Assembly (NCBI GenBank): GCA_964423445.1
Contig: CAYREQ010000004.1
Span: 2,700 to 66,699, forward strand
Direction of reading: 5' to 3'
Length of the DNA: 64,000 nucleotides
Source of the DNA: an uncultured Candidatus Saccharibacteria bacterium
GTDB lineage: Bacteria; Patescibacteriota; Minisyncoccia; Phycocordibacterales; UBA9973
Below the pieces are notes generated by a model. That model worked only from the letters and a program-made list of their open reading frames with translations, was not told the origin of the DNA and searched no databases. A program made the position numbers and the translations under genes. Below, one piece after another: positions 4,228 through 60,788 of the stretch. The stretch's first letter is position 1; every line of letters starts with the position of its first letter.

Positions 4228-5301
4228 ATGTTAAAAACAAAAATCAACAAGTTACCAAAAAGTGAAATAGAGATAGAAGGAGAAATCCCTGAGGATATAT
4301 TTGAAGGCTATTTTAATAAAGCTTTAAAAATACTTGGTGAAAATATAAAAATAGATGGTTTTAGAAAAGGTAAAATACCAGAAGCAGTACTCTTACAAAA
4401 TATTCCTGAGATAAGTATCTTGGAAAAGATGGCAGAGCTTGCCCTAAATGAACACTATCCAAAAATAATCACTGATGAAAAAATAGACGTCATAGCTAGG
4501 CCAGAAATAACTATCACCAAACTGGCTCGTAAAAACCCACTTGGTTTTAAAATAAAAACTGCCGTATTACCAGAAATAAAACTTCCTGACTATAAAAAAA
4601 TTGCAAAGAAGATTTTAGGAGAAGTCACTGATGCTGAAAAAAATATAGTAGTAAGTGATGAAGATTTAGAAAACACTATAAAAGATATCTTGAAATCTCG
4701 TGCACCAAAAAAACATGTAGCCGACGTGCCCGCCGAAGCTTTAGCGAAGGAGGGAGGTGAAGTAGTAGAAGACATAAAAGAAGAACTTCCGGAATTCAAT
4801 GATGAATTTGTAAAAAATCTCGGACCATTCAAAGATGTAGCAGATTTTAAAGATAAACTAAAAATAAATATAAAATTAGAAAAAGAAAACGCACAAAAAG
4901 AAAAAACTAGAGTAAAAATTATTGAAAAAATAATAGAAGATAGTGAGCTCGAATTGCCTGAGATATTGGTTGAAATAGAAGTAAATAAAATTCTACAAAG
5001 AATGGAAGCTGATATTACCCAGATGGGATTGAAGTTTGAAGATTATCTAAAACACTTAAACAAAACAATAGAAGATTTGAGAAAAGATTTTAGAGGCGAT
5101 GGAGAGAAAAAAGCAAAATTAGGCCTACTTTTAAATGAAATTTCCAAAGTAGAGAAAATAACTGCTGACCCTGAACTCGTAGCAAAAGAAGTAGCTGCTA
5201 TATTAGAACACTACAAAGACGCAGACCCGGAAAGGGCTCAAATGCACGCAGAAAATGTGCTAACCAATGAAAAGATTTTCCAATTTTTGGAAAGCCAATA
5301 A
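4228..5301 (+). CDS. tig: Trigger factor (short form; no clear PPIase domain)
   Basis: The N-terminal ribosome-binding signature GFRKGKIP is present, and length and charge pattern fit the trigger-factor N-terminal and C-terminal domains. At 357 aa (E. coli Tig is 432 aa) the FKBP-type PPIase domain appears reduced or absent. Confidence 0.75.
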   Translation: MLKTKINKLPKSEIEIEGEIPEDIFEGYFNKALKILGENIKIDGFRKGKIPEAVLLQNIPEISILEKMAELALNEHYPKIITDEKIDVIARPEITITKLARKNPLGFKIKTAVLPEIKLPDYKKIAKKILGEVTDAEKNIVVSDEDLENTIKDILKSRAPKKHVADVPAEALAKEGGEVVEDIKEELPEFNDEFVKNLGPFKDVADFKDKLKINIKLEKENAQKEKTRVKIIEKIIEDSELELPEILVEIEVNKILQRMEADITQMGLKFEDYLKHLNKTIEDLRKDFRGDGEKKAKLGLLLNEISKVEKITADPELVAKEVAAILEHYKDADPERAQMHAENVLTNEKIFQFLESQ

Positions 5302-5302
5302 A

Positions 5303-6112
5303 CTACTCTACTTCCCGAGATGAACCCTCGGGAATTTTTGTTTCTGTTTCTCTATAAGCTTCGATGTCAATTAGATTGATATAATCTTTTCCACTTTCAT
5401 TACTTGTCATAAATTGTCTGGCTTGTAAATCATTTGGAGTTAACCCATTTAATAAAAACAATTGCTTTAATTCTTTTGCAAATTTTTCTATAACTAAATT
5501 ATCCTCATCTACAGAATGTCCTAAAATAGGTCTATACACTAAATATTTCCTGTGGGACTTTTTATCATTGATAGCAATAATGGGTTCTGAAAAATTAATT
5601 CCTTCAAAATTATACTTTTTTGCCAATTCTTGAGCTGCATTTGAGTTAATTAATTCTCTTACTTTTTTTGATAACACAATTTCATTTAAAATACCGAGCA
5701 TTGTGTAACGAGATCTTTTGTCATCATTTATAAAATCGCTTGAATCTATAAAATCTGATCCTTTACCCTCGCGCAAAAAATCTAAAGCTTCTTTTGTATA
5801 TTTTGCCATCCCTGAACCATATTTATATTTTAAATAAAATCTTTTAGTTTTATCTTTCAAGATAATAAATTGAGATTTTGAATTAGACATGAAACGAAAT
5901 GGGTATGATTTTATATCATTAAGAATGCTATCAATATCTTTTGAATTTGAATAATCTAAATTTACTACAATATCAAGATTACCTATGTGCTCAATTTTGT
6001 AAGTTTTTGGACTACTTTCTTTTATAGAAATACCAGACTCTGGAGTTTTCATAAACAAATCATAGCAAAACACCCAATCATAGTCTAATGATTGGGTATT
6101 TTTTGTAAACAT
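5303..6112 (-). CDS. Hypothetical protein
   Basis: Long ORF sitting tightly downstream of the AsnA-like gene on the same strand. No motif recognised. Confidence 0.4.
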   Translation of the reverse strand: MFTKNTQSLDYDWVFCYDLFMKTPESGISIKESSPKTYKIEHIGNLDIVVNLDYSNSKDIDSILNDIKSYPFRFMSNSKSQFIILKDKTKRFYLKYKYGSGMAKYTKEALDFLREGKGSDFIDSSDFINDDKRSRYTMLGILNEIVLSKKVRELINSNAAQELAKKYNFEGINFSEPIIAINDKKSHRKYLVYRPILGHSVDEDNLVIEKFAKELKQLFLLNGLTPNDLQARQFMTSNESGKDYINLIDIEAYRETETKIPEGSSREVE

Positions 6113-6124
6113 TATGTGAAAATC

Positions 6125-6973
6125 TTAGACTGGCTGGCCTTTTAATTTTTTATAAGCCATTATCATCCTAGTCATACCTATACCTCCACCGACTCTCGGA
6201 AAGAATTTTAATGATAAAAATTCATCAAGCTCTTTTTGCACTCTTTCTTTACCAAATAAATCATACAGAAGCTTAGCATATCCTCCACCTGAAATAGTAT
6301 TGAATTCTTCCCTCATTTCTTCTATGTTTGTACTTCTTTCTGCAGAGCCGATGGTCTCATGTCCATACATTATCACATCTATTTTTTCTGCATAATCTTT
6401 ACTCTTTCTTCGCATATTCCAAAATGGAGAAGTGAAAGATGGAAATTCTTTACAGAAAACTATTGGTCCAAAATCTTGCTCCATTTTATTTTCATTTTCA
6501 GTCTTTAGCTCTTCTACTCCATAAAAATTCTTTAATTCATCATAAGTTTTCATATGATATTTATCTCGTGGACCAAAGCCTAGATATTCCAAAAGCTCAA
6601 TCTCAAATTTTTCCAAATCAGAGAGTGTGCCAGGTAGTTCAAATTCAAACATTGGAAAAATTATTTTATGTCGTCCAGGGATTGGATTCTTTTCATTTCT
6701 ATAGCTAGTACTGACACAAAATACTCCAGGGAGTTCAGGGCGAGTCAATAATTCATATTCTAGCCACATCTGTCCTGTCTGTGGCAATGGCCAGACTTGT
6801 CCTGCGTAATTATATGTAGCTACAGTAGTAGGATCTTCACAGGCTGCTAATATAGAGAGTCTGTCTTGTGTATTTACTTCCACAAAACCTTTACTCAAAC
6901 AAAAACTTCTCATTTTATTTACGACCTCACTAAAAGCTACTACATCTCTCTCGCCCACATAATTGTCTATCAT
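6125..6973 (-). CDS. Class II aminoacyl-tRNA-synthetase-fold protein, AsnA (aspartate-ammonia ligase)/AsnRS-core-like
   Basis: Motif-2-like TSYRNEKNPIPGRHKIIFPMFEFE and a C-terminal motif-3 GGGIGMTRMIMAY (compare E. coli AsnA GGGIGQSRLTMLL). At 282 aa it is too short for a full aaRS. Confidence 0.55.
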   Translation of the reverse strand: MIDNYVGERDVVAFSEVVNKMRSFCLSKGFVEVNTQDRLSILAACEDPTTVATYNYAGQVWPLPQTGQMWLEYELLTRPELPGVFCVSTSYRNEKNPIPGRHKIIFPMFEFELPGTLSDLEKFEIELLEYLGFGPRDKYHMKTYDELKNFYGVEELKTENENKMEQDFGPIVFCKEFPSFTSPFWNMRRKSKDYAEKIDVIMYGHETIGSAERSTNIEEMREEFNTISGGGYAKLLYDLFGKERVQKELDEFLSLKFFPRVGGGIGMTRMIMAYKKLKGQPV

Positions 6974-6992
6974 ATTATTTTTATGTTAACTA

Positions 6993-7020
6993 ATAAAAAA
7001 ACAACCCCATCACTGGGGCT
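6993..7020 (-). terminator. Terminator-like hairpin plus U-run in the leader about 25 nt upstream of the AsnA-like start (possible attenuator)
   Basis: On the minus strand, CCCCA-gtga-TGGGG is followed by TTGTTTTTTT. No upstream minus-strand gene is present. Confidence 0.25.
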
Positions 7021-7199
7021 GTTTGGAAACAAAATATAAAAAGAGAAATAAATTTAGGGTTTTTCGAACACCCATATTTTTTTCTCTTGTTTGATACATT
7101 GTTTACAATGATATCACTTTAAAAAGTGTCTGCAATGTGGATAACTTATAAAAATTATCTAAAGTTGAGAAAAATTTAAAAAAGGTATATTGTATATGT

Positions 7200-7796
7200 A
7201 TGTTAATACCAACAGTTATAGAAAAATCACAATTTGGAGAGCGTGCTTATGATATTTATTCACGTTTACTGCGTGAACGTATCATATTCTTGAGTGGCCC
7301 GATAGATGACCATACAGCAAATATCATCATAGCTCAGCTTTTATTCCTTGAATCCGAAGATTCAAAAAAGGACATTTACTTATATATAAATTCACCAGGT
7401 GGCTCTGTCACTTCTACTCTCGCTATTGTAGACACCATGAATCATGTCCGCCCAGATATATCTACTTTTTGTGTAGGTTTGGCTGCGTCTGGTGCTGCTA
7501 TAGTATTGTCTGCAGGTAAAAAAGGAAAAAGATACATACTTCCAAATGCTGAAGTTATGATTCACCAACCTTTAGGTGGTGTAGAAGGACAAGCTACAGA
7601 TATAGCCATCACTGCAAAGCACATACTAAAGACTAGAGATAACCTAAACAAACTTCTAGCAAAAAATACTGGCAAGACTTTGGCTCAAATAGAAAAAGAT
7701 GTAGAGCGAGATTTCTTTATGGACTCAGACGAAGCCAAAAAATATGGAATAGTAGATGAAATAGTCACAAAATCTAAACTTCCTGAGAAAAAATAA
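7200..7796 (+). CDS. clpP: ATP-dependent Clp protease proteolytic subunit
   Basis: Canonical ClpP blocks, including [19 protein letters not shown] (Ser nucleophile), MIHQPLGG (His) and the D region. Confidence 0.9.
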
Positions 7797-30004: not shown

Positions 30005-30847
30005 TTAAACTTTTGGTTTAATTAATTTTGAATATGTTTCATTTTCTAAAATCATATCCTCCAAGGCTTTAGCTATGCCCATTATTTTTGTCGGATAATT
30101 TACAGATTCTTTTACTTTACAGTTTTTTACATATTCATTTATGTCTCCATTATATTTAAAAAAGTCTCCATTTTTTCCGCTAGGTCTTTCGAGCACATAG
30201 CCTTCTCCCCTATTGTAAGCCAGAAAAGCCCAGAGCCATGCATCACTATCATTTACCGAAACTCCGATTTCATTTCCACATTTTTTAGCTAAATTTTTTA
30301 ATAATTTTAAATATTTACAAGCTGCTTCTGTGGTCTCTCTTATGTCTTTGGTATTTTTTATGCCAAATCTTTTTGCGGTGTCTGGTATAAACTGCCAAAT
30401 TCCAGCAGCGCTTGATCCATGATTAAGTGCATTTTTATTCCAATAAGATTCAGTCATAGCTAAAAATATCAGTTCATTTGGTACACCCTCTCTTTTAAAA
30501 ATATCAGATACTATCTCAAGATCACTTTGATTTTTTTTACTTGAATCTAGTAACCTAGTCCACCCATCTTTTAGAGATTGGTAATTGTCCCCTCCTTTTA
30601 TGTGCCTTTTATACCAGTAATCTACTTTTTCTAAAAATTCTTTTCCTTGGTTTGGAATTACTTCTTTTTTAGTCAGTAAATCATTTATGATTTTTTCTCT
30701 AATTATATTCCCTGTTTCATTTGTATCAGGTATTACTTTATTAGTCTCGGCCGCTAAAGCAGAACTAGCAATAGCAGTACCAGCTAGAGCTCCTCCTAGT
30801 TTTTTTAGAAATTCCCTTCTTCCCATGTTTGAAGGTCCATTTTCCAT
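30005..30847 (-). CDS. Lytic transglycosylase (SLT/GH23 domain) with a Tat-type signal peptide
   Basis: RREFLKKLGGALAGTAIASSALA twin-arginine signal, and an SLT catalytic region ESYWNKNA...SAAGIWQFIPDTAKRFG. Confidence 0.8.
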   Translation of the reverse strand: MENGPSNMGRREFLKKLGGALAGTAIASSALAAETNKVIPDTNETGNIIREKIINDLLTKKEVIPNQGKEFLEKVDYWYKRHIKGGDNYQSLKDGWTRLLDSSKKNQSDLEIVSDIFKREGVPNELIFLAMTESYWNKNALNHGSSAAGIWQFIPDTAKRFGIKNTKDIRETTEAACKYLKLLKNLAKKCGNEIGVSVNDSDAWLWAFLAYNRGEGYVLERPSGKNGDFFKYNGDINEYVKNCKVKESVNYPTKIMGIAKALEDMILENETYSKLIKPKV

Positions 30848-50803: not shown

Positions 50804-53674
50804 ATGAAGAAATTTTTTACATACATATTAATATTTGTCACAGTATTACAGCTAGTTATTCCACCTAGTCCTGCGCAAGCAGAAAGCCCTACGGATAAAG
50901 GTGATTGTGCTATTCCTGGAGCCACAATGACAAACGTCACTAGGGAATTTTGTAAAAATAGTGGAGGTACATTTAAAGCCTTTGGATCTACTACTACACC
51001 AGTCTCTACAGAAAGCCCTACTGATAAAGGTGATTGTGCTATTCCTGGAGCCACAATGACAAACGTCACTAGGGAATTTTGTAAAAATAGTGGAGGTACA
51101 TTTAAAGCCTTTGGATCTACTACTACAGGTGGACCGGGCGGGACCCTTGGAGATACAGGCTCAGCTGCGGCTCCTGGAGACGCTCCAAAAGATCCAAATG
51201 CTGATATTTTTGGAAGCTGTAGTGGATGGAATCTTGTTGTAGCTTGGAACGTCACTGGTTGTGTGGTAAGAGCATTTCATCTTGTATTTATGGTATTACC
51301 ATCTATGGTTTTATACCTTACAGCATATATATTCAATGCTATGCTCGCCCTAACTCTCGGTACTGTTTTATATAAAAATGGTTTTTTACCAGAAGCTTGG
51401 AGAATAGTGCGAGACTTTTCAAACATCTTCTTTATACTGGTTTTATTATATATATCTATAAAAATGATTTTAGGCTTGGGTGGAGCTGAAGTAAAAAAGA
51501 TGATAGCCCAAGTCATAGTGGCTGCTCTACTCATAAATTTTTCTATGTTTATGACTCAGGTAGTCATAGACGCTTCAAACATGCTTGCTTTAATTTTTTA
51601 TAATAAAATCCAAGTCACTTCTCAAACATACACCCCTTTTATAAGTACAAAAAATGGTGTACAAGATAAAGATATCGCTGGAGCCATCGCTTCTGGTTTT
51701 AACCCAGCTAAATTTATCAACCCTGCTGATGTGGCAGAAATTAATAATAAAGCAGTAACTAGTGGAGGTTTATTTTATGACCTAAAAAATATAGCTAAGG
51801 ACCCAAGTACAACAATAAACCCACTCAGACCTCTCGACAACACTACAACTAATTTAAAAATAGGTTGGGCTGTAGCAAAAAGTGCTCTAACTGGTGGTGG
51901 AGATGAAAAAACTTTTCCACCATCTATCGCACTGGCAATAATTTTTACAGCCTGTGCGGTCTATCTCTTTGCATCATATGCATTTTTTATTGCTGGATTA
52001 GCATTTATTGGTAGATTGATAGAGCTCTGGATGCTGATTATATTTTCACCTTTTGCTTTTATGTCTTTATCTGTACCAAAATTGAAAGGCATAGAATATC
52101 TGGGATGGGATGCATGGCTAAAACGGCTACTTGCAGTGGCTTTTATGGCTCCTGTTTTCATGTTCTTCCTACTATTAATATCAAAACTTGTACAAATAAA
52201 TATATTCAAAGGAATGGAAAATATTCCAGGGCAAACTCCAATTACAATTCCTCATGTACTTGTAATGCTTATAATTCCAGCAATTATATATATCAGTCTT
52301 CTTTGGAAAGCTGTGGACTATGCAAAAAAGGGAGCAGGAGAATTCGGCTCTGCCATAATTAAATACGGACAAATGGCAGCTGTGGCAGTGGGTGGACTAG
52401 CTGTGGGTGCAGCTACGGGTGGAGTAGGATTGGCTGCTAGTTCCACCCTTGGAAGCCTTGCTGCAAAGACAGCAAGCAGCAGCTCTCTACTTAAGGCATC
52501 AACTCAAAAAGGAATAGGTGGATGGGCAGCAAGAATGACTCTAAAGGGTGCAGAGTATGGAGCAAATGCATCCTTTGATGCTAGAAAACTTCCTGGTGTT
52601 GGTGGAATGATGAAAAAAATGGGTATGAAGACAGAATCTTCTACTATTACAAAAGCTTTGGGTCTAAGTAGTGCTGGTGGATATGAAGGCAGAAAGAAGA
52701 GAATGGAGGAAGAAAGAGAGAAGAGAGAAAAACAATTAAAAGTAAGAGGTAGTGACCCACTAATGCATGAACTACACAAAGAACAAGAAAATCTACAAAG
52801 TGCAGAAAATAAAGTGGCTGAATGTTTTAGACAAATAGATGACGAGATTGAAACATGGGAATCAAAGAAACGTCAAGCTGTAAATGGTAGTGCTGATGAT
52901 GTAAAAGCTGCAGAAAAATTAAAAGAATTAAATGAACTAAAAGGGTCTATAAAAGCTGGTGTTATGCCTATGGTGCTTAAATACACCGAGGGGGCATTTA
53001 AGGGTGAATTTAAAGACGCAAATGGCAACTATAACACAATGAAGGAAAAAGATCAGACTGGTAAAATGATTGATATTTATGCTACAAGCAATGGCAAGAT
53101 AGCTGAAAAGGCTGTTGAAGAATATGAAAACAAAGTAAAAGATGGTGAAAAGACTGAGACAGAAGCAGAAAATGCATTAACGGAGGCTCAGCTAGCTATA
53201 AAGGCAATAAAAGAATCTGAAGTGAAAGCTAAAGAAGCAGCAGATGCAAGAAAAAAAGCAGAAGAAGAACAATTGGCAAGACCTACAAGTACTGATGCAA
53301 ACAATGCCCTAAAAACTGCAATTGAAAATGAGACAAAAGCTCTTAAAGAATTAGAAGATAACAAGGAAAAAGCACCAAAATTAGATATAAAAGAACTAAT
53401 AAAAAACCATGAATCAGCAAAAACTAAACTTTCTGAACTTCGTTCTAAGCTAGAAATAACAAAAGAAATAACAAAAGGTGGAACTGGAGCATCTATAAAA
53501 GAAATGAAAAATATAATAATACCTGGAATTAAAACAAAAATAAGAGATATTGAAAACAGCTGGAAATGGGCGGAAGCTGATAGGATTGAGGGTAAAATGC
53601 TATTTAAAAATATTAACCATGAATTAGCACACAAAATGAGAATGGCCGCAGATGTAACAGAAGTAAAACATTAA
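50804..53674 (+). CDS. VirB6/TrbL-like polytopic membrane protein with N-terminal tandem Cys-loop repeats and a C-terminal coiled-coil extension
   Basis: Signal peptide, two 43-aa repeats (ESPTDKGDCAIPGATMTNVTREFCKNSGGTFKAFGSTTT), then about 8 TM helices in a roughly 400-aa core, then a roughly 400-aa K/E-rich coiled coil. This is the architecture of TrbL/VirB6-family proteins. Confidence 0.5.
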   Translation: MKKFFTYILIFVTVLQLVIPPSPAQAESPTDKGDCAIPGATMTNVTREFCKNSGGTFKAFGSTTTPVSTESPTDKGDCAIPGATMTNVTREFCKNSGGTFKAFGSTTTGGPGGTLGDTGSAAAPGDAPKDPNADIFGSCSGWNLVVAWNVTGCVVRAFHLVFMVLPSMVLYLTAYIFNAMLALTLGTVLYKNGFLPEAWRIVRDFSNIFFILVLLYISIKMILGLGGAEVKKMIAQVIVAALLINFSMFMTQVVIDASNMLALIFYNKIQVTSQTYTPFISTKNGVQDKDIAGAIASGFNPAKFINPADVAEINNKAVTSGGLFYDLKNIAKDPSTTINPLRPLDNTTTNLKIGWAVAKSALTGGGDEKTFPPSIALAIIFTACAVYLFASYAFFIAGLAFIGRLIELWMLIIFSPFAFMSLSVPKLKGIEYLGWDAWLKRLLAVAFMAPVFMFFLLLISKLVQINIFKGMENIPGQTPITIPHVLVMLIIPAIIYISLLWKAVDYAKKGAGEFGSAIIKYGQMAAVAVGGLAVGAATGGVGLAASSTLGSLAAKTASSSSLLKASTQKGIGGWAARMTLKGAEYGANASFDARKLPGVGGMMKKMGMKTESSTITKALGLSSAGGYEGRKKRMEEEREKREKQLKVRGSDPLMHELHKEQENLQSAENKVAECFRQIDDEIETWESKKRQAVNGSADDVKAAEKLKELNELKGSIKAGVMPMVLKYTEGAFKGEFKDANGNYNTMKEKDQTGKMIDIYATSNGKIAEKAVEEYENKVKDGEKTETEAENALTEAQLAIKAIKESEVKAKEAADARKKAEEEQLARPTSTDANNALKTAIENETKALKELEDNKEKAPKLDIKELIKNHESAKTKLSELRSKLEITKEITKGGTGASIKEMKNIIIPGIKTKIRDIENSWKWAEADRIEGKMLFKNINHELAHKMRMAADVTEVKH
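50882..51127 (+). repeat. Intragenic tandem duplication; 129-bp unit, two copies, one mismatch
   Basis: Direct comparison: 50882-51010 and 51011-51127 differ at a single base (acggat versus actgat) and encode two 43-aa Cys-loop modules. Confidence 0.85.
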
Positions 53675-53684
53675 AATTTATTTT

Positions 53685-54182
53685 ATGACTGAAGAACTAA
53701 AAAAAACAACAGAAGAAGAAATAGCGAGACTTCCTAAAGAAATAGGGGAGGCTGTAAATAATTCTAATTGGGTAAAAATCACGGAAGAAATAGGCAAAAA
53801 ATATTCTTTTTCAGAAAAAGAGATTACAAATCTACAAGCAGAAACTGCAATAATTTTAGTAGGAGCTGAGGATTCAGATTTATTTGCAGAAAATATTGAA
53901 AATAATGTAAGAACAACAAAAGAAAAAGCTGAAAAAATTTCAGCTGAAATATTTGAAAAAATATTTATTCCTATAAATGGTATTATTGAGGGAAAAATTA
54001 AAAATAATATGCAAGGAAAAGAAATGAACTGGCAACAATCTATAAACTTTATACTTTCTGGTGGAAATTATTCTGTTCTACTAGAAAACCCAACTCATAA
54101 AGTTTCCACAGAACCACAAAAAGTAAGTAGTGTTTTGGGTGCAAAAAGTATGCAGGATATAAAAGACAAATTGGTGAATTAA
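53685..54182 (+). CDS. Hypothetical protein (T4SS-like cluster)
   Basis: 165-aa ORF co-directional with the cluster and separated by 10 nt. No TM helix. Confidence 0.4.
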   Translation: MTEELKKTTEEEIARLPKEIGEAVNNSNWVKITEEIGKKYSFSEKEITNLQAETAIILVGAEDSDLFAENIENNVRTTKEKAEKISAEIFEKIFIPINGIIEGKIKNNMQGKEMNWQQSINFILSGGNYSVLLENPTHKVSTEPQKVSSVLGAKSMQDIKDKLVN

Positions 54183-54979: not shown

Positions 54980-55408
54980 ATGCAATTTAAAGTTCCACAA
55001 TTTTTAGAAATAGAAGACAAAATTTTTGGCCCATTTACTTTTAAAGAGTTTATCTATTTGGTAGGAGGTGGGGGCATGTGTTTTGTTATTTATAAGTTAT
55101 TGGGTTTATTTTGGGGAGCAATACCTATACTATTAGTAGGTGGTTTTGCTTGTATGCTTACTTTTTACAGGCCAAACAATAAACCCTTTTTAAATATGAT
55201 AGAAGCTGGTTTTAATTTTACCTTGCAGAGCAAACTATATATCTGGAAGAAACGAAAGATAAAAAATGATACTAAATCAACTTCAAATATAGTGAGTGAG
55301 GATAAAAATTCAGCTATGGCGGAAAGTGGTATGCGGTTGAGCGGAAACAAACTTCGAGATTTGGCATGGAGTTTGGATGTTTTAGATTTGAAAAAAGAGG
55401 GGAATTAG
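54980..55408 (+). CDS. Small two-TM membrane protein, PrgI/VirB3-like candidate
   Basis: N-terminal FGPFTFKEFIYLVGGGG followed by two adjacent TM helices, located upstream of VirB4 as VirB3/PrgI usually is. Confidence 0.4.
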   Translation: MQFKVPQFLEIEDKIFGPFTFKEFIYLVGGGGMCFVIYKLLGLFWGAIPILLVGGFACMLTFYRPNNKPFLNMIEAGFNFTLQSKLYIWKKRKIKNDTKSTSNIVSEDKNSAMAESGMRLSGNKLRDLAWSLDVLDLKKEGN

Positions 55409-55475: not shown

Positions 55476-56114
55476 ATGGCATTGAACGCAAAAGCAACTC
55501 AAGAGTTTGTACCTATTAAAGAGGTACGTGATGGCATAATCGTCTTAAAAGACGGGGGTCTTCGTGCTATCATCTTGGCAAATTCTGTAAACCTTTCCCT
55601 AAAATCAAGCGATGAACAAAGAGCTACTATACTCCAATTTCAAAACTTCTTAAACACTTTAGATTTTTCTATACAAATATCTGTACAGTCTAGAAGATTA
55701 GACATCCGACCTTACCTTTTGCTTTTAGAGAATAGAATAAAAGTTCAAAATGAACCACTCTTAAAACTACAAACAAAAGAATATATGAATTTTATAATGA
55801 GTTTTACTGAATCAGTAAACATAATGACAAAAAGTTTCTTTATTGTAGTACCTTATAGTCACACTGTCTTAAAATCTGATTCTGGTTTTTTGGGAAAAAT
55901 CTTTAAAAGAAAAAGTAAAGAAGATAAGCAAGCCGAAAAAGAAGAAGACTTTGAAGAAAAAAAATCACAGCTCGAGCAGAGAGTAGGAGTAATACAGCAA
56001 GGACTTTCTCGTTGTGGTATAAAATCAGCAAAACTAGGCACAGAGGAAGTGGTAGAAGTATTCTATAAAGTTTTCAACCCTGGAGAAGTAGAAGGTAAAA
56101 TAAAATTAGAATAA
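55476..56114 (+). CDS. Hypothetical protein with VirB4-N-terminal-domain-like motifs
   Basis: IKEVRDGIIVLKDGGLRAIILANSVNLSL...LDFSIQISVQSRRLDIRPYL resembles the conserved CagE/TrbE/VirB4 N-terminal region. Its stop lies 5 nt before the VirB4 start. Confidence 0.35.
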   Translation: MALNAKATQEFVPIKEVRDGIIVLKDGGLRAIILANSVNLSLKSSDEQRATILQFQNFLNTLDFSIQISVQSRRLDIRPYLLLLENRIKVQNEPLLKLQTKEYMNFIMSFTESVNIMTKSFFIVVPYSHTVLKSDSGFLGKIFKRKSKEDKQAEKEEDFEEKKSQLEQRVGVIQQGLSRCGIKSAKLGTEEVVEVFYKVFNPGEVEGKIKLE

Positions 56115-56118
56115 ATAT

Positions 56119-57981
56119 ATGATGGATTTTTTTAAAAACTTATTTGGTAGAAAAAATAAACTCGGTGGAGGTGCTATTTCTGCTGGAACACAAGCTTCTA
56201 TCATGCCAGTATTGCCAGGGGAGATATATGAATCAGCAAATATTGAACTCCAAGACATCATCGCTCCTTCTGCGTTAAAAATTGAATCAAAATCCATAAA
56301 CCTAGGTGAAAAAATTGCTCGTACTTTTTTTATAATTTCTTACCCGAGATTTTTAACTGACAATTGGTTTTCTCCAATCATAAATTTGGATAAAGTTTTT
56401 GATATTTCTATATTTGTCCACCCGATTGATACCTCATTGGCACTCCGACAATTTCAGAAAAAGGTGGCGGAAGTTCAAAGTCAGATAAATGTAAGGGAGA
56501 AAAAAGGTATGGTAAGGGATCCTATGCTAGATACTGCATATCAAGATTTGGAAGGTTTGCGTGATAACCTGATTCAAGCCCAAGAAAAAATGTTTGATAT
56601 GGGTATATATATCACAATATATGCCGACACAGAACTCGAGCTCTTTAAAGTTGAAAATGAAATAAAATCTATGCTCGAATCTAGATTAATCTATATAAAG
56701 CCTGCTTTATTCCAACAAGAAGAAGGCTTTAAAAGCATAATCCCTTTAAATACAGACCTTTTAAATATTCACCAAAAATTAAACTCCGAGCCTTTGTCTA
56801 GTATTTTTCCTTTTGTATCTTTTGACCTGACTTCTGATAACGGAATTTTATATGGAATAAACAGGCACAATTCTAGTTTGGTAATATTTGATAGATTTTC
56901 TCTTGAAAACTACAACTCTGTGACCTTTGCAAAATCTGGTTCTGGAAAATCTTATTGTACAAAATTGGAAATATTGAGATCTCTCATGTTTGATATTGAT
57001 GTGATGGTAATAGACCCTGAGAGGGAATATGAATTTTTATCTGAGGCTGTCGGTGGAAGATATTTCAACATTTCTCTTTCCTCTGATCACCACATGAACC
57101 CTTTTGATCTACCTATGCCGCGTGAAGATGAAACTGCAGAAGACGTACTTCGTTCAAATATCATAAACCTAGTAGGTCTATTCCGATTGATGCTAGGTGG
57201 TCTTACTCCAGAAGAAGATTCGATAGTAGATCGAGCTATCTCTGAGACATATGCAATGAAAGACATCACTCCTGATTCTGATTTTTCCAATATTGAACCA
57301 CCATTATTATCTGACTTTGAAATGGTACTTTCAGGCATGGAAGGATCTGATGCGATAATCTCGCGATTGGCAAAATACACAAAAGGTTCTTGGTCTACAT
57401 TTTTAAACAGACCTAGTAACGTAGACATAAATAAAAAATTCGTAGTATTTTCTATACGAGATATGGAAGACGAGCTAAAACCTGTAGCTATGTATATCAT
57501 CATGCACTATATCTGGAATGCTATTAGAAAAAACCTAAAAAAGCGCTTACTTGTAGTGGACGAAGCTTGGTGGATGATGAAATCCGAAGATACTGCTTCT
57601 TTCCTTTATTCAATGGCAAAAAGAGGAAGAAAATATTATCTAGGTCTAGCTACTATTACTCAAGACGCTGCAGATTTCATGAAATCTCCTTATGGTATTC
57701 CTATTGTCACAAACTCTTCAATACAAATTCTCCTAAAACAATCACCGACTACAATAGATGTATTGCAAAAAACCTTTAGCCTGACTGACGAAGAAAAATA
57801 TTTACTTCTAGAGTCTGGAGTAGGGGAAGGCATCTTTTTTGCTGGATTAAAACACGTAGCTATTAAGATAGTAGCTTCATACACAGAAGACCAAATCATA
57901 ACTTCTGATCCATCCCAAATACTTTCAAATAGAAAAGCAAAGGAAGATTATGAGACCACTGTGAGTGAGGGAAGATTGTAA
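56119..57981 (+). CDS. virB4: VirB4/TrbE/CagE-family type IV secretion ATPase (Gram-positive PrgJ/TcpF-like)
   Basis: The N-terminal IAPSALKIESKSINLGEKIARTFFIISYPRF...SPIINLD pattern, Walker A FAKSGSGKSY and Walker B LLVVDEAWWMM. Confidence 0.8.
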   Translation: MMDFFKNLFGRKNKLGGGAISAGTQASIMPVLPGEIYESANIELQDIIAPSALKIESKSINLGEKIARTFFIISYPRFLTDNWFSPIINLDKVFDISIFVHPIDTSLALRQFQKKVAEVQSQINVREKKGMVRDPMLDTAYQDLEGLRDNLIQAQEKMFDMGIYITIYADTELELFKVENEIKSMLESRLIYIKPALFQQEEGFKSIIPLNTDLLNIHQKLNSEPLSSIFPFVSFDLTSDNGILYGINRHNSSLVIFDRFSLENYNSVTFAKSGSGKSYCTKLEILRSLMFDIDVMVIDPEREYEFLSEAVGGRYFNISLSSDHHMNPFDLPMPREDETAEDVLRSNIINLVGLFRLMLGGLTPEEDSIVDRAISETYAMKDITPDSDFSNIEPPLLSDFEMVLSGMEGSDAIISRLAKYTKGSWSTFLNRPSNVDINKKFVVFSIRDMEDELKPVAMYIIMHYIWNAIRKNLKKRLLVVDEAWWMMKSEDTASFLYSMAKRGRKYYLGLATITQDAADFMKSPYGIPIVTNSSIQILLKQSPTTIDVLQKTFSLTDEEKYLLLESGVGEGIFFAGLKHVAIKIVASYTEDQIITSDPSQILSNRKAKEDYETTVSEGRL

Positions 57982-58008: not shown

Positions 58009-59019
58009 ATGTATAATTATATTATGAACAAAGGGTATATGAAATTTAAATTATTAACGTTGTCACTAATGATAATTTCATTGTTTTCTTTACCTTTTAC
58101 AGCAAGTGCTGTGTCTCCAAGTAGCATTAATGTAGATATAGTGCCACCAACCCCAACACCAGGAGAATCTACCACAATAACCTTGAGTAGTTATGGAAAC
58201 AATCTAGATAGTGCTTTAATATCATGGTTTGTCGCTGGTAAAAAAGTAACTTCTAGTGTTGGTATGAAATCATTTTCAATAAATGCTCCAAATATGGGAT
58301 CAGAAACAAGTGTAAAAGCTGTAATAGATTTACCTGATGGCCCAATAACAAAAACAATTTTAATAAGACCAAATATTATGGTGTTGCTCTGGCAGGCTAG
58401 TGATTCTTATGTACCACCATTTTATCGTGGTAAAGCATTGCCTACAGAAGAAAGCACTATAAAAGTAGTGGCTATGCCTGAAGTAAAAACCAAATTAGGT
58501 CCAGTTAATCCAAAAAATATGATTTATTCTTGGCAATTAAATTATGCAAGCGATGGAGAAAGTACTGGTTATGGGAAAAATACTTTTACCTATACAAATG
58601 ACTACTTGGAAGACTTTGAAAATATTTCTGCTACAGCTACGACCATAGATGGACAGTACTCATCACAAGCAAATATAAATATAAAGCCTCGAGACCCAAA
58701 AATAGTATTTTATAAAAATGATGCAAGTATGGGTATCTTATGGGAACAGGCTCTAAAAGATGGGCATAAGATAGTGGGTGATGAAGTTATCGTAGCTTCA
58801 CCATATTTCCTTTCACCAAAAGAAACTTGGAGTCCAAATCTAACCTGGAATTGGTTTTTAAATGATTCTCTCACAAATAATACATTGAAGTATAGAAAAA
58901 ATTGGATACCTTTAAAGGTGTCTGGTACTGATACCGGTTCAGCTACTTTAAAATTACAAATAGAAAATAAATATCAACTATTTGGAAACATAAGTAAAGA
59001 AATAAGTTTGGAATTTTAA
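58009..59019 (+). CDS. Secreted hypothetical protein (T4SS-like cluster)
   Basis: Signal peptide FKLLTLSLMIISLFSLPFTASA and a domain with beta-rich composition. Confidence 0.45.
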   Translation: MYNYIMNKGYMKFKLLTLSLMIISLFSLPFTASAVSPSSINVDIVPPTPTPGESTTITLSSYGNNLDSALISWFVAGKKVTSSVGMKSFSINAPNMGSETSVKAVIDLPDGPITKTILIRPNIMVLLWQASDSYVPPFYRGKALPTEESTIKVVAMPEVKTKLGPVNPKNMIYSWQLNYASDGESTGYGKNTFTYTNDYLEDFENISATATTIDGQYSSQANINIKPRDPKIVFYKNDASMGILWEQALKDGHKIVGDEVIVASPYFLSPKETWSPNLTWNWFLNDSLTNNTLKYRKNWIPLKVSGTDTGSATLKLQIENKYQLFGNISKEISLEF

Positions 59020-60263
59020 TGATGAAAAAATTTTTACCTTTTATCTTAATACTGGTGATAATCTCTGGTTTTTTTAGTATTACTTCAAAAGTAAGTGCTG
59101 AAGATAAAGGTACTTGTTATAAAAATGCAGGAGAAGTAGTCGGCAATGATGTAACAGAAAAAAAATGTAAAGACGCCCCACCTCTTGGTCTTGGTGGGGA
59201 AGCATGGGGTCCAAATACCACCACTCCACCAGGAGGTGGAGGCAAGCAAACCAATGAAGAGAAATATAGGGCTTGTATAGCAGATGGTGGCTCAGAAGAT
59301 GATTGTAGAAGTTATGTGTTAGCGAGCGATGGTAGCTACCATCTTCTCCAACCATTACCCTGCAAAGCTGATGAACCTAGTTGTGAAGATGGGAAACTTA
59401 CAACTTTTGATCCAGATGGTACAGGAAAACTAGGAGAATACTTGAACTTAATGATAAATCTATTTATAGGTTTATGTGCTGTGACAGCTGTAGTAATGAT
59501 AGTAATGGGAGGTATAGAATATAGTACTAGTGATTTAGTGTCTGGTAAGGCTGCAGCTAAAGATAGAATACAAAATGCTATCTTGGGATTACTATTAGCT
59601 TTATGTTCTTGGCTTATACTTAATACTATCAATCCTGATTTACTTAATACTGAGATTGATATTGGTGGGGCTAGTATTACTTCATACGGAGAAATAACAT
59701 TGGAAGCATTGCCTGATGGTACTTATAGTAGTACTGGAGGAGCTGGAGCCGGGGTGATAGGAAGTGGACAATGTAAAGTACAAACAAACCCAAACAATGC
59801 TTGTAGTCCACAAAAATTGTCTAGTTGTTTTAGAGATAGAGTAAACGAAGCCTCTAGGGTGTGTAGTGTAGAAAGTGCGGGAGGGCAAACAGGAGTAGAA
59901 AGTGGTAGTGATAAATTAGCAGACGGTCGTTCATATTCTGTGGGTCTTTGGCAAATTAATTTAACAGTTCATCAAGTTAGAGACCCAAATACTGGGCAAA
60001 TGCTAGATTGCCCTGCAGCATTTACTGGCAATCGTCGTGGATGTGGTAGGGGAACAGTAGTACCAAGTGGCCCAAATGTTGGACATTGCTCATTTTCAGT
60101 TAGAGATATAAATCTATATAATAGATGTGTGGCGGCTGCAAAAAACCCTACAAGCAATACTGAGGCTGCTTGTAAAATTTACAATCAAACAGGCCATAGT
60201 TTCCAGCCTTGGGGCTGGACAGCTAAAAAAGCTTGCAAGCCTCCAATTCCTTATAAATTATAA
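59019..60263 (+). CDS. Secreted Cys-rich protein with a two-TM hairpin and a C-terminal lysozyme-like (GH23/SLT-type) domain; VirB1/PrgK-like candidate
   Basis: Signal peptide, a Cys-rich N-terminal region, the hairpin LNLMINLFIGLCAVTAVVMIVMGG...AILGLLLALCSWLILNTI, then ESAGGQTGVESGSD...SYSVGLWQINL (the ES...GLxQ pattern of lytic transglycosylases). Confidence 0.5.
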   Translation: MMKKFLPFILILVIISGFFSITSKVSAEDKGTCYKNAGEVVGNDVTEKKCKDAPPLGLGGEAWGPNTTTPPGGGGKQTNEEKYRACIADGGSEDDCRSYVLASDGSYHLLQPLPCKADEPSCEDGKLTTFDPDGTGKLGEYLNLMINLFIGLCAVTAVVMIVMGGIEYSTSDLVSGKAAAKDRIQNAILGLLLALCSWLILNTINPDLLNTEIDIGGASITSYGEITLEALPDGTYSSTGGAGAGVIGSGQCKVQTNPNNACSPQKLSSCFRDRVNEASRVCSVESAGGQTGVESGSDKLADGRSYSVGLWQINLTVHQVRDPNTGQMLDCPAAFTGNRRGCGRGTVVPSGPNVGHCSFSVRDINLYNRCVAAAKNPTSNTEAACKIYNQTGHSFQPWGWTAKKACKPPIPYKL

Positions 60264-60272
60264 ATTTTTAAT

Positions 60273-60788
60273 ATGAAAAAATATATTTTACCCATATTTA
60301 TCTTAATAGTTTTAGTTGGAATTGTATTTTTTCTTTATATAATAAAGAAGGATTCAAATTTAACCGAACAAAAAAAAGACGACATAAAAACACTTGTAAA
60401 AAATGATGTACCTAAAAATAATCTGTTACTAAATGATGGTAGCACTATTCAACTTCCAGAATTTATCACTCAAAATGAAAAAACCACGAAGCTTACCCCT
60501 GAGACTTTTAGAGAAATAGCTGGAGGAAATAATTTAAATTTTTCTATATCATATCTACCTTATAATAAAGAAAATTCACAAATACAATTTACTGTAATAT
60601 TGAATAAGTTGCCCCTATCAAAATCTAGGGTGGAAGCAGAAAATGCCCTTAGGACAAAGCTGGGTTTGAGTAATGAAGAATTATGTAAGTTGGATTTATC
60701 TGTATACGTATTTGGTTGGATAAATAAAGACCTTGCTGGCCAAAACTTAGGTCTATCTTTTTGTGATGGTGCTATGGATTTACCTTAG
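60273..60788 (+). CDS. Membrane-anchored hypothetical protein (possible VirB8-like position)
   Basis: N-terminal TM helix (YILPIFILIVLVGIVFFLYII) and a roughly 140-aa ectodomain. Confidence 0.3.
   Translation: MKKYILPIFILIVLVGIVFFLYIIKKDSNLTEQKKDDIKTLVKNDVPKNNLLLNDGSTIQLPEFITQNEKTTKLTPETFREIAGGNNLNFSISYLPYNKENSQIQFTVILNKLPLSKSRVEAENALRTKLGLSNEELCKLDLSVYVFGWINKDLAGQNLGLSFCDGAMDLP

Follow-up and report, generated by a model that had tools for sequence, protein, structure and literature searches.

Here, we present an analysis of one gene in a 64,000-nucleotide (nt) stretch of DNA (the window) from an uncultured Candidatus Saccharibacteria bacterium (contig CAYREQ010000004.1 of assembly GCA_964423445.1). 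The gene is an open reading frame (ORF) on the forward strand at 59019..60263 that encodes 414 amino acids (aa) plus stop and contains no internal stop codon; its ATG shares 1 nt with the TAA of an upstream 336-aa ORF (TAATG). The first-pass annotation, which was made from the letters of the DNA, had read the product as a fusion of a signal peptide, a Cys-rich region, a two-helix hairpin, and a C-terminal lysozyme-like domain, and we recovered all four parts in the 414-aa ORF. More importantly, comparison with relatives shows that a conserved pilin core of ~117 aa is followed, at one and the same slot, by interchangeable cassettes that are predicted to be peptidoglycan enzymes. Moreover, we identify the fusion as the VirB2-type pilin homologue of a chromosomal, oriC-proximal type IV secretion system (T4SS) of Patescibacteria (Paceibacteria/Parcubacteria-type). 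The gene has the following layout, in which L numbers denote related loci, P numbers related proteins, AF2 AlphaFold2, and pLDDT its predicted local distance difference test:

59019..60263, + strand: whole gene, putative modular T4SS pilin with a lysozyme-like domain (translation, Pfam, homologue search)
59019..59099, + strand: signal peptide, residues 1-27 (MMKK, hydrophobic core, VSA/ED; sequence and hydropathy, with the cleavage site inferred from an AXA-type motif)
59100..59333, + strand: variable Cys-rich N-terminal region, residues 28-105 (Cys 33, 50, 86, 96), 80% identical in L007, 61% in L001, replaced in P0012 and P0013
59334..59684, + strand: conserved pilin core, residues 106-222, comprising a beta-hairpin with the C115-C122 pair, helix 1, basic loop, helix 2, and the NPDLLNTEIDIGGA end (Pfam T4SS_pilin, homologues, AF2)
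59436..59513, + strand: hydrophobic helix 1, residues 140-165 (hydropathy and AF2)
59514..59570, + strand: inter-helix loop, residues 166-184, IEYSTSDLVSGKAAAKDRI, 3 K/R (charge count; predicted to be cytoplasmic in the membrane-inserted form)
59571..59636, + strand: hydrophobic helix 2, residues 185-206 (hydropathy and AF2)
59685..59768, + strand: cassette junction and flexible acidic G/S/T linker, residues 223-250 (pLDDT below 50; DNA identity to the L007 orthologue collapses)
59769..60260, + strand: C-terminal lysozyme-like domain of Pfam SLT_3 type, residues 251-414, 10 Cys (Pfam, alignment, AF2)
59871..59876, + strand: codons for E285-S286, of which the Glu is the putative catalytic residue and ends a long helix (invariant in 56 sequences; model helix 264-285)
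59943..59960, + strand: codons for G309-L-W-Q-I-N314, a lysozyme/SLT-type motif (G309, Q312, and N314 invariant; L310 and I313 at 90% or more)

The mature N-region, counted up to helix 1, comprises residues 28-136 with 6 Cys, and the acidic Gly/Ser/Thr-rich linker spans residues 207-250 (~44 residues) in all. Because the protein starts with a signal peptide, has three K/R residues in the loop between the helices, and carries even numbers of Cys on both flanks (6 and 10), the N-region and the enzyme domain are predicted to lie outside the cell and the loop in the cytoplasm.

The hairpin had been described as pilin-like, and a profile search of it against pilin families bears this out: residues 137-204 match Pfam T4SS_pilin (PF18895) with 31.9 bits, above the cut-off of 26.6 (E=1.4e-7). 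Among 56 aligned proteins, i.e., the target and 55 relatives that share its SLT_3-type C-terminal domain (C-domain), 55 match T4SS_pilin and 32 match the TrbC/VirB2 family PF04956 (best E 9.4e-5); the target itself has no PF04956 match at E<=1 in the Pfam search, and its NCBIfam match to the Mbov_0395 pilin-like conjugal transfer family is sub-threshold. AlphaFold2 models the hairpin as two long helices (residues 137-170 and 174-204, pLDDT about 85-90) and places a beta-hairpin at residues 107-130. The protein has the order of parts of a pilin, in that a signal peptide precedes two hydrophobic helices with a short basic loop between them; however, with 414 aa, of which ~110 precede the core and ~190 follow it, it is not a small pilin only. 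A homologue search with the fusion protein retrieved 254 proteins, and among the 121 closest relatives there is no stand-alone pilin. Neither a subfamily hidden Markov model (HMM) run over six-frame ORFs nor a hydropathy screen of small ORFs detected a second pilin gene in the window, which leaves the fusion gene as its sole pilin-like gene.

Directly after helix 2 lies a strongly conserved INPDLLNT motif, which is followed by the disordered linker. This arrangement would suit a pro-pilin from which the enzyme is removed: the C-terminal domain would be cut off at maturation and released as a local wall hydrolase, and the short core alone would polymerise. RP4 TrbC sheds C-terminal residues on maturation, and with such a step a filament would be free of bulky decorations and of the steric problem that they pose. 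However, no protease gene was recognised in the operon, and we regard the scheme as very doubtful.

For the C-domain, the match to Pfam SLT_3 (PF18896, "lysozyme like domain"; cut-off 27) reaches 24.3 bits with the full protein and 27.9 bits with the isolated domain. Within the 56-protein alignment, 41 members match SLT_3 (E<=0.1), and distant homologues found with the C-domain alone, in a search that returned 540 representative clusters, score 32.8-36.5 bits and cover nearly the whole profile. Invariant in the 56 sequences are E285, S286, G289, S295, D298, S307, G309, Q312, N314, F335, W398, and six Cys. In the AlphaFold2 model of the isolated C-domain (pLDDT 92.6; predicted template modeling score, pTM, 0.88), E285 ends the helix 264-285 and a beta region follows. 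Thus, both an SLT-type match and the candidate catalytic Glu, on which the first-pass annotation had staked its reading, are present. Like the wider lysozyme-like families (GH23 SLT/goose-type and GH22 C-type), the C-domain has Glu-Ser at a helix end and then a beta region with G-L-x-Q-I-N; unlike them, it has ten Cys, and no significant structural match in the PDB was found for it. Matches to Pfam SLT are weak (E 0.02-0.19), and the PDB sequence profile search gave weak matches to insect C-type lysozymes only (E about 0.15), in which the alignment covers CxxES...GLxQIN plus the C-terminal C...W...C stretch. In hhalign comparisons with approximate reference sequences of HEWL, human lysozyme, alpha-lactalbumin, GEWL, and VirB1, only GLxQIN was aligned, with probabilities of 27%, 0.8%, and 14%. 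By profile and alignment, the C-domain is a divergent, Cys-rich member of the Pfam SLT_3 lysozyme-like family, and its likeness to C-type lysozymes and to SLT/VirB1 appears to be at the motif level only. Of the earlier label "GH23-type", the lysozyme-like part is upheld by the SLT_3 match, the invariant Glu, and a canonical SLT domain at the same slot in relatives (59.6 bits), whereas GH23 specifically is not, given the motif-level likeness to both C-type and SLT/VirB1 enzymes and the lack of a PDB match.

We split the protein into three modules and compared each of them with the 120 best homologues, of which 112 have the pilin core (residues 100-215) and only 60 the C-domain; a family HMM detects the core in all 121 relatives. 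P0012 has a core that is 94% identical to that of the target but a VanY/M15 tail, and P0013 has an 87% identical core but an NlpC/P60 tail; conversely, cores that are only 22-33% identical carry C-domains 45-51% identical to that of the target. Identity of the core correlates negatively with that of the C-domain (Spearman rho -0.40, p 0.0025, n 54), and the histories of core and cassette are, as far as these comparisons indicate, incongruent. The tails of the 121 relatives comprise the SLT_3 type (60), a mixed group that is partly weak SLT_3 (15), NlpC/P60 (14), VanY (13), an unnamed HxH-motif type (10), SLT_2 (6), YkuD (2), and an unclassified singleton (P0050). The first-pass annotation had considered a single polypeptide with pilin-like and VirB1-like parts unusual; judging from these homologues, such fusion is instead the rule in a large Patescibacteria family and not a one-off. 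Among 137 new representative proteins from the search with the C-domain only, 113 carry the pilin core, and many of the remaining C-domain proteins look N-terminally truncated, while several are 456-1077 aa long.

The exchange is most readily seen between near-identical operons. Contig L007 (GCA_964472335.1) has the same operon as the window, and its proteins are 98.9% (VirB4), 98.1% (TrsD), 92.3% (PrgI), 89.7% (pilin core), 82.1% (336-aa protein), and 80% (fusion N-region) identical to those of the window at the amino acid level; its C-domain, however, is non-homologous and of the NlpC/P60 family. At the DNA level, identity to L007 is 0.61-0.94 (mostly 0.8 or higher) from virB4 to about 59566, 0.71 in the 59566-59715 bin, and 0.30-0.48 from 59716, i.e., directly past the NPDLLNTEIDIGGA codons. 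At the cassette position, L001 (VirB4 94% identical) has an SLT_2-like domain, and L002 (VirB4 92%) has the same SLT_3 type with 48% identity. In a metagenome scan with VirB4, we recovered 80 loci at 73-89% identity, and 58 of these have an ORF with the pilin core whose start lies about 1.0-1.2 kb past VirB4. The 51 complete ORFs at this slot have tails of the VanY (15), SLT_3 (8), HxH (6), NlpC/P60 (4), and YkuD (3) types, of the mixed group (2), or of no assigned class (13); the last include Peptidase_M15_4 (57-66 bits), canonical SLT (PF01464, 59.6 bits), a "QRESGG" type, and two unknown types. Altogether, at least nine tail types, seven of which are Pfam families, occupy the slot among these 51 loci, and all cassettes with an assignable name are peptidoglycan enzymes (SLT_3, SLT, SLT_2, NlpC/P60, VanY/M15, M15_4, YkuD). 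GC content at third codon positions (GC3) is 0.208 in the cassette and 0.195-0.21 in its neighbours. A foreign origin of the cassette was rejected, there being no compositional sign of distant acquisition; because its GC3 equals that of the neighbours, exchange probably takes place within the lineage.

A conserved N-terminal module with exchangeable C-terminal domains among close relatives is what is expected of a polymorphic toxin, and the turnover raises the question of whether the enzymes are aimed at a host. The core would then be the delivery module of a polymorphic anti-host platform, and the exchangeable enzymes, displayed on a pilus or cleaved near the NPDLL junction, would attack host peptidoglycan for nutrient or DNA traffic. 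Replacement of the cassette at an orthologous slot between genomes with nearly identical VirB4, the variety of tails at that slot, and the incongruent histories of core and cassette all favor this idea, as do the paralogues and tandem arrays elsewhere in related genomes and the fast divergence of exposed T4SS parts (VirB6-like protein 53% and a 165-aa ORF 54% identical to L007, in contrast to VirB4). It also accords with statements in PMC10633639 and PMC11665869 that the Patescibacteria T4SS is essential for epibiotic growth. However, no conserved immunity-like gene accompanies the fusion gene, the 171-aa ORF directly downstream having no homologue in L001-L003, L006, L007, or 80 species-genome loci, which speaks against a toxin/immunity system of the classical kind; housekeeping VirB1 analogues, too, normally draw on varied hydrolase types, according to passages of PMC12102498; and some Patescibacteria associate with archaea, which lack peptidoglycan (PMC10936435, in part). 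We consider the anti-host platform unlikely; it overlaps with the reading of the fusion as a pilin, and in the same unlikely case cassette turnover would track host-wall chemistry.

The fusion gene sits in a T4SS operon. Upstream and on the same strand lie genes for a 493-aa secreted protein, a VirB6-like protein, two small proteins, PrgI/VirB3, a TrsD/TraC-like protein, VirB4, and the 336-aa protein; the fusion gene is two genes downstream of that for VirB4. Downstream follow a 171-aa ORF and the gene for a 455-aa protein and then, on the opposite strand, jag, yidC, yidD, and rnpA. The assigned neighbours are as follows:

50804..53674, + strand: 956-aa polytopic membrane protein, VirB6-like candidate (weak MMCAP2_0566 match; duplicated Cys-loop module at the N-terminus)
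54980..55408, + strand: PrgI family protein, VirB3-like (32.1 bits, cut-off 27)
55476..56114, + strand: TrsD/TraC-like protein (212 aa) that resembles the VirB4 N-terminal domain as a separate gene (profile search)
56119..57981, + strand: VirB4-type ATPase (620 aa) of the NCBIfam CD1110 family (365.5 bits, cut-off 325)
58009..59019, + strand: 336-aa secreted or anchored protein, translationally coupled to the fusion gene (1-nt overlap; kept in L001, L002, L003, and L007)

The gene order through jag, yidC, and rnpA is common to L001-L003, where it runs on into dnaA and dnaN beyond the equivalent of the window end; the L007 contig stops just after the fusion gene. The locus is the oriC-proximal T4SS arrangement that Quinonero-Coronel et al. 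2025 describe for Patescibacteria (PMC12102498, relevant passages). The 336-aa protein had no Pfam or PDB sequence match and could be a VirB8- or VirB5-like partner, and the 455-aa protein encoded downstream had no PDB sequence match and only sub-threshold Pfam matches. In a scan of the operon for promoters and terminators, nothing exceeded the shuffled expectation. The gene that follows the fusion in relatives encodes a conserved 450-aa protein or, for a second paralogue, is ruvB.

Several further observations concern these neighbours. The TrsD/TraC-like gene lies 4 nt upstream of the VirB4 gene, which agrees with the published Patescibacteria pattern. The VirB6-like ORF (50804-53674) starts with a 129-bp tandem duplication at 50880-51127 (1.9 copies, 99% identical), whose product is a Cys-loop module (DKGDC...VTREFCK...) similar to the first Cys loop in the fusion N-region (BLASTP E 2e-5); a small disulfide-loop module seems, from this resemblance, to be common to exposed T4SS parts. 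Between L007 and the window, the region 50804-54182 has diverged strongly, with 52.7% identity for the VirB6-like protein and 53.9% for the 165-aa ORF despite 98.9% for VirB4 and 98.1% for TrsD; this uneven divergence within the operon suggests diversifying change or recombination in some components. The membrane-anchored 171-aa ORF (60273-60788, + strand) separates the fusion gene from the conserved gene for the 455-aa protein; it lacks homologues in L001-L003, L006, L007, and the 80 species-genome loci with the same C-domain and is a lineage-specific insertion. As a candidate immunity gene or inhibitor it was rejected, being absent from every related locus examined.

With a predicted peptidoglycan-hydrolase domain encoded within a T4SS operon, the fusion fits the VirB1 class, and no separate VirB1-like gene is present in the T4SS locus. 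Both observations would be accounted for if the protein were only a membrane-anchored VirB1 analogue, as the first-pass annotation had allowed in proposing that the hairpin is a mere membrane anchor. The hairpin would then stay in the membrane as an anchor or docking element and hold the hydrolase at the base of the T4SS, where it would open the producer's own wall for the channel in the manner of PrgK, TraG(pIP501), and TcpG. The linker of ~44 residues would put the domain within reach of that wall, the cassettes have no immunity-like gene beside them, and monoderm T4SS hydrolases are described in passages of PMC12102498 as membrane-anchored and modular, with varied hydrolase domains. However, the anchor is a pilin homologue at the profile level, and its constraint exceeds what a simple anchor needs: the core, at 90% identity to L007, nearly equals PrgI/VirB3 (92%), and the VirB6-like protein of the same genome pair reaches only 53%. 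Moreover, the conserved extracellular beta-hairpin and the variable N-terminal module suggest a packed core with exposed surfaces, and the window holds no other pilin candidate, although pilins are a hallmark of such systems. The anchor proposal is weakened by conservation of the core at 74-94% identity next to unrelated flanking domains and still stands as a rather unlikely account.

Altogether, we are highly confident that the protein combines a pilin homologue and a peptidoglycan enzyme, at the level of domains, and is a component of the T4SS. How it works is less certain. We favor a modular pilin that polymerises, is decorated with its appended modules, and supplies VirB1-like wall cutting in cis, because a constrained core with variable exposed N- and C-terminal modules is the pattern of a filament subunit and because the window holds no other pilin candidate; for the mechanism in full, we would stop slightly short of calling it probable. 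According to this model, the protein would be exported by Sec and its signal peptide cleaved, and the hairpin would insert in the membrane with the loop inward, so that both the N-region and the enzyme domain would face the exterior, where their Cys residues, even in number on each side, can pair in disulfides. Core subunits would be extracted by the VirB4/VirB3/VirB6 machine, which is encoded just upstream, and stacked into a filament or stalk resembling a pilus, on whose outer surface the appended modules would sit like the termini of known conjugative pili. The tethered enzyme would cut peptidoglycan around or ahead of the filament, and the wall being cut could be the producer's own, that of a host, or both. 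A VirB1-type function would thereby be supplied in cis, the equivalent of which Saccharibacteria encode as separate genes beside virB4. More speculatively, and in our view quite unlikely, the T4SS pilus could be enzyme-studded and self-drilling: every subunit would show a cassette and a Cys-loop module, the enzymes would clear the producer's wall and then breach that of the host, and cassette swapping would be host-range adaptation, amounting to a polymorphic effector system on a conjugative-type pilin.

Several points weigh against a decorated pilin with a wall-cutting enzyme. We know of no experiment that shows any Patescibacteria T4SS pilin, fused or not, polymerising, and a domain of ~165 aa together with an N-region of ~110 aa on each subunit could, by our own reasoning, hinder packing. 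Foldseek with the full model found no significant match to solved pilins in the PDB, only generic helical hairpins. For the C-domain, the SLT_3 score of the target is borderline, and its model (pLDDT 92.6) gave no lysozyme or transglycosylase match in the PDB by Foldseek; against BFVD viral models, the matches were weak (E 0.14 or worse, TM 0.3-0.4), with 7 of 20 named SLT, LT_GEWL, or lytic transglycosylase. Catalytic activity of the C-domain is a prediction from its motifs and family membership. Finally, VirB4 lies within 6 kb in only 18 of the 80 species-genome loci, and many family members are away from VirB4. These 80 species genomes with the C-domain include Nomurabacteria, Paceibacteria/Paceibacterota, Parcubacteria, Kaiserbacteria, Moranbacteria, and similar groups.

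Compared with known pilins, the fusion shares a signal peptide, two hydrophobic helices, and a basic loop with both the VirB2/TrbC/TraA conjugative pilins (PF04956) and the short Patescibacteria pilins (PF18895). The latter are encoded in the same type of oriC-proximal locus with VirB4, VirB3, and VirB6 homologues, as far as the relevant parts of Wang et al. 2023 and Quinonero-Coronel et al. 2025 describe it. The fusion is larger than the short pilins (414 versus about 130 aa) and, unlike them, has a Cys-rich N-extension of ~110 aa and a C-terminal enzyme domain of ~165 aa. In the fusion, the core is conserved and the appended modules vary, whereas in the pilin arrays of Saccharibacteria the pilin itself varies, averaging 25% identity, according to passages of PMC12102498; fused hydrolase domains are not mentioned in the relevant passages of that source or of PMC10633639. 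In the T4SS locus of S. epibionticum ML1, as tabulated in part of the supplement of PMC10633639, there are six short PF18895 pilins (SEML1_0014-0019), VirB4 (0008), PrgI (0010), and VirB6-like proteins. Beside virB4, the same source places two separate proteins, one (0006) combining two lysozyme-like domains with a cysteine peptidase and the other (0007) an M15B-like peptidase. Passages of PMC10633639 report the pilins as essential, and passages of PMC12102498 cite the peptidase and lysozyme homologues beside virB4 as essential for epibiotic growth. Because functions encoded by separate neighbouring genes in S. epibionticum ML1 are fused here, we suggest a functional link between the pilin and the wall enzyme.

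The fusion also resembles the VirB1-type hydrolases, i.e., VirB1 and the monoderm proteins PrgK (pCF10), TraG (pIP501), TcpG, and CD419, which likewise have a peptidoglycan-cleaving domain encoded in a T4SS operon. The monoderm proteins are likewise membrane-tethered and modular and draw on varied hydrolase families, and the canonical SLT domain that occupies the cassette slot in some relatives of the fusion is a VirB1-like trait. The fusion differs in that its tether is a pilin homologue and not a plain transmembrane helix, in that it has a single enzyme domain, and in that this domain is of the SLT_3 and not of the canonical SLT family.

Similar designs occur in other surface and secretion systems. 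In modular (bimodular) type IV pilins such as PilB and PilC of Streptococcus sanguinis, a conserved pilin displays a C-terminal globular module on the filament; the fusion differs in belonging to a T4SS and not to type IV pili, and its grafted modules are enzymatic, not adhesive. In "evolved" spikes of type VI secretion systems (T6SSs) and in polymorphic toxins, a conserved delivery module carries exchangeable peptidoglycan-degrading ends, as in VgrG-3 with its lysozyme-like C-terminal domain. The turnover of cassettes between close relatives is as in those systems; in contrast to them, the fusion has no adjacent immunity gene, belongs to a different secretion machine, and would deliver to a target cell only hypothetically.

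T4SS pilins, VirB1-type hydrolases, and Patescibacteria T4SSs with pilins are already known; as far as the literature searched goes, the fusion and the polymorphism of its cassettes are new. No description of pilin-hydrolase fusions was found in that literature, including the relevant parts of two sets of supplements, which does not imply that none exists elsewhere. The consecutive Pfam accessions PF18895 and PF18896 suggest that curators met both domains together, and part of the picture is already implicit in databases. In reviews, as represented by parts of PMC10633639 and PMC11665869, the Patescibacteria T4SS is described as essential to epibiotic growth but completely unknown in its role, and a passage of PMC12857230 states that pilins set this T4SS apart from all other monoderm T4SSs. 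Our findings suggest that, in Paceibacteria-type loci, the pilin itself carries a wall-cutting enzyme. They offer a testable link between the T4SS and breaching of the cell wall of the producer or the host, and the swapping of the enzyme module between near-identical machines provides experimental handles, namely catalytic mutants, cassette swaps, and antibodies to the exposed domain. They also add a T4SS example to the theme of filament subunits in which functional modules are grafted onto a conserved core.

Some relatives have more than one copy of the fusion gene. In L099, two pilin-fusion genes (VanY, then SLT_3) lie in tandem at the T4SS slot (5096-7765). In L020, L021, L031, L033, L035, L044, L061, L063, and L066, the query match spans about 1.8 kb, or the core and C-domain matches are about 1 kb apart, which suggests that these nine loci hold tandem copies too. 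Such tandem copies recall the arrays of short pilins in Saccharibacteria. In L005 (1777-4522) and L006 (8296-11119), a second paralogue of the pilin fusion is encoded across dnaA, directly after a gene for a 565-aa T2SSE/PilB-like ATPase; the two genes overlap in L005 (P0021, unknown tail) and are 7 nt apart in L006 (P0024, NlpC/P60). A T4SS-type pilin is here paired with an ATPase of the T2SSE family.

Domains related to the C-domain also occur outside the fusion. The same SLT_3-type domain ends some proteins of 493-1077 aa that have neither the pilin core nor another Pfam domain, i.e., P0169, P0201 (965 aa), P0230 (1077 aa), P0252 (721 aa), P0212 (636 aa), and P0164 (493 aa). Elsewhere in the window, a protein with a canonical SLT domain (PF01464, 55.4 bits) is encoded between tRNA genes at 30005-30847 on the minus strand; its N-terminal RREFLKK looks like a twin-arginine signal, and it may be a housekeeping lytic transglycosylase.

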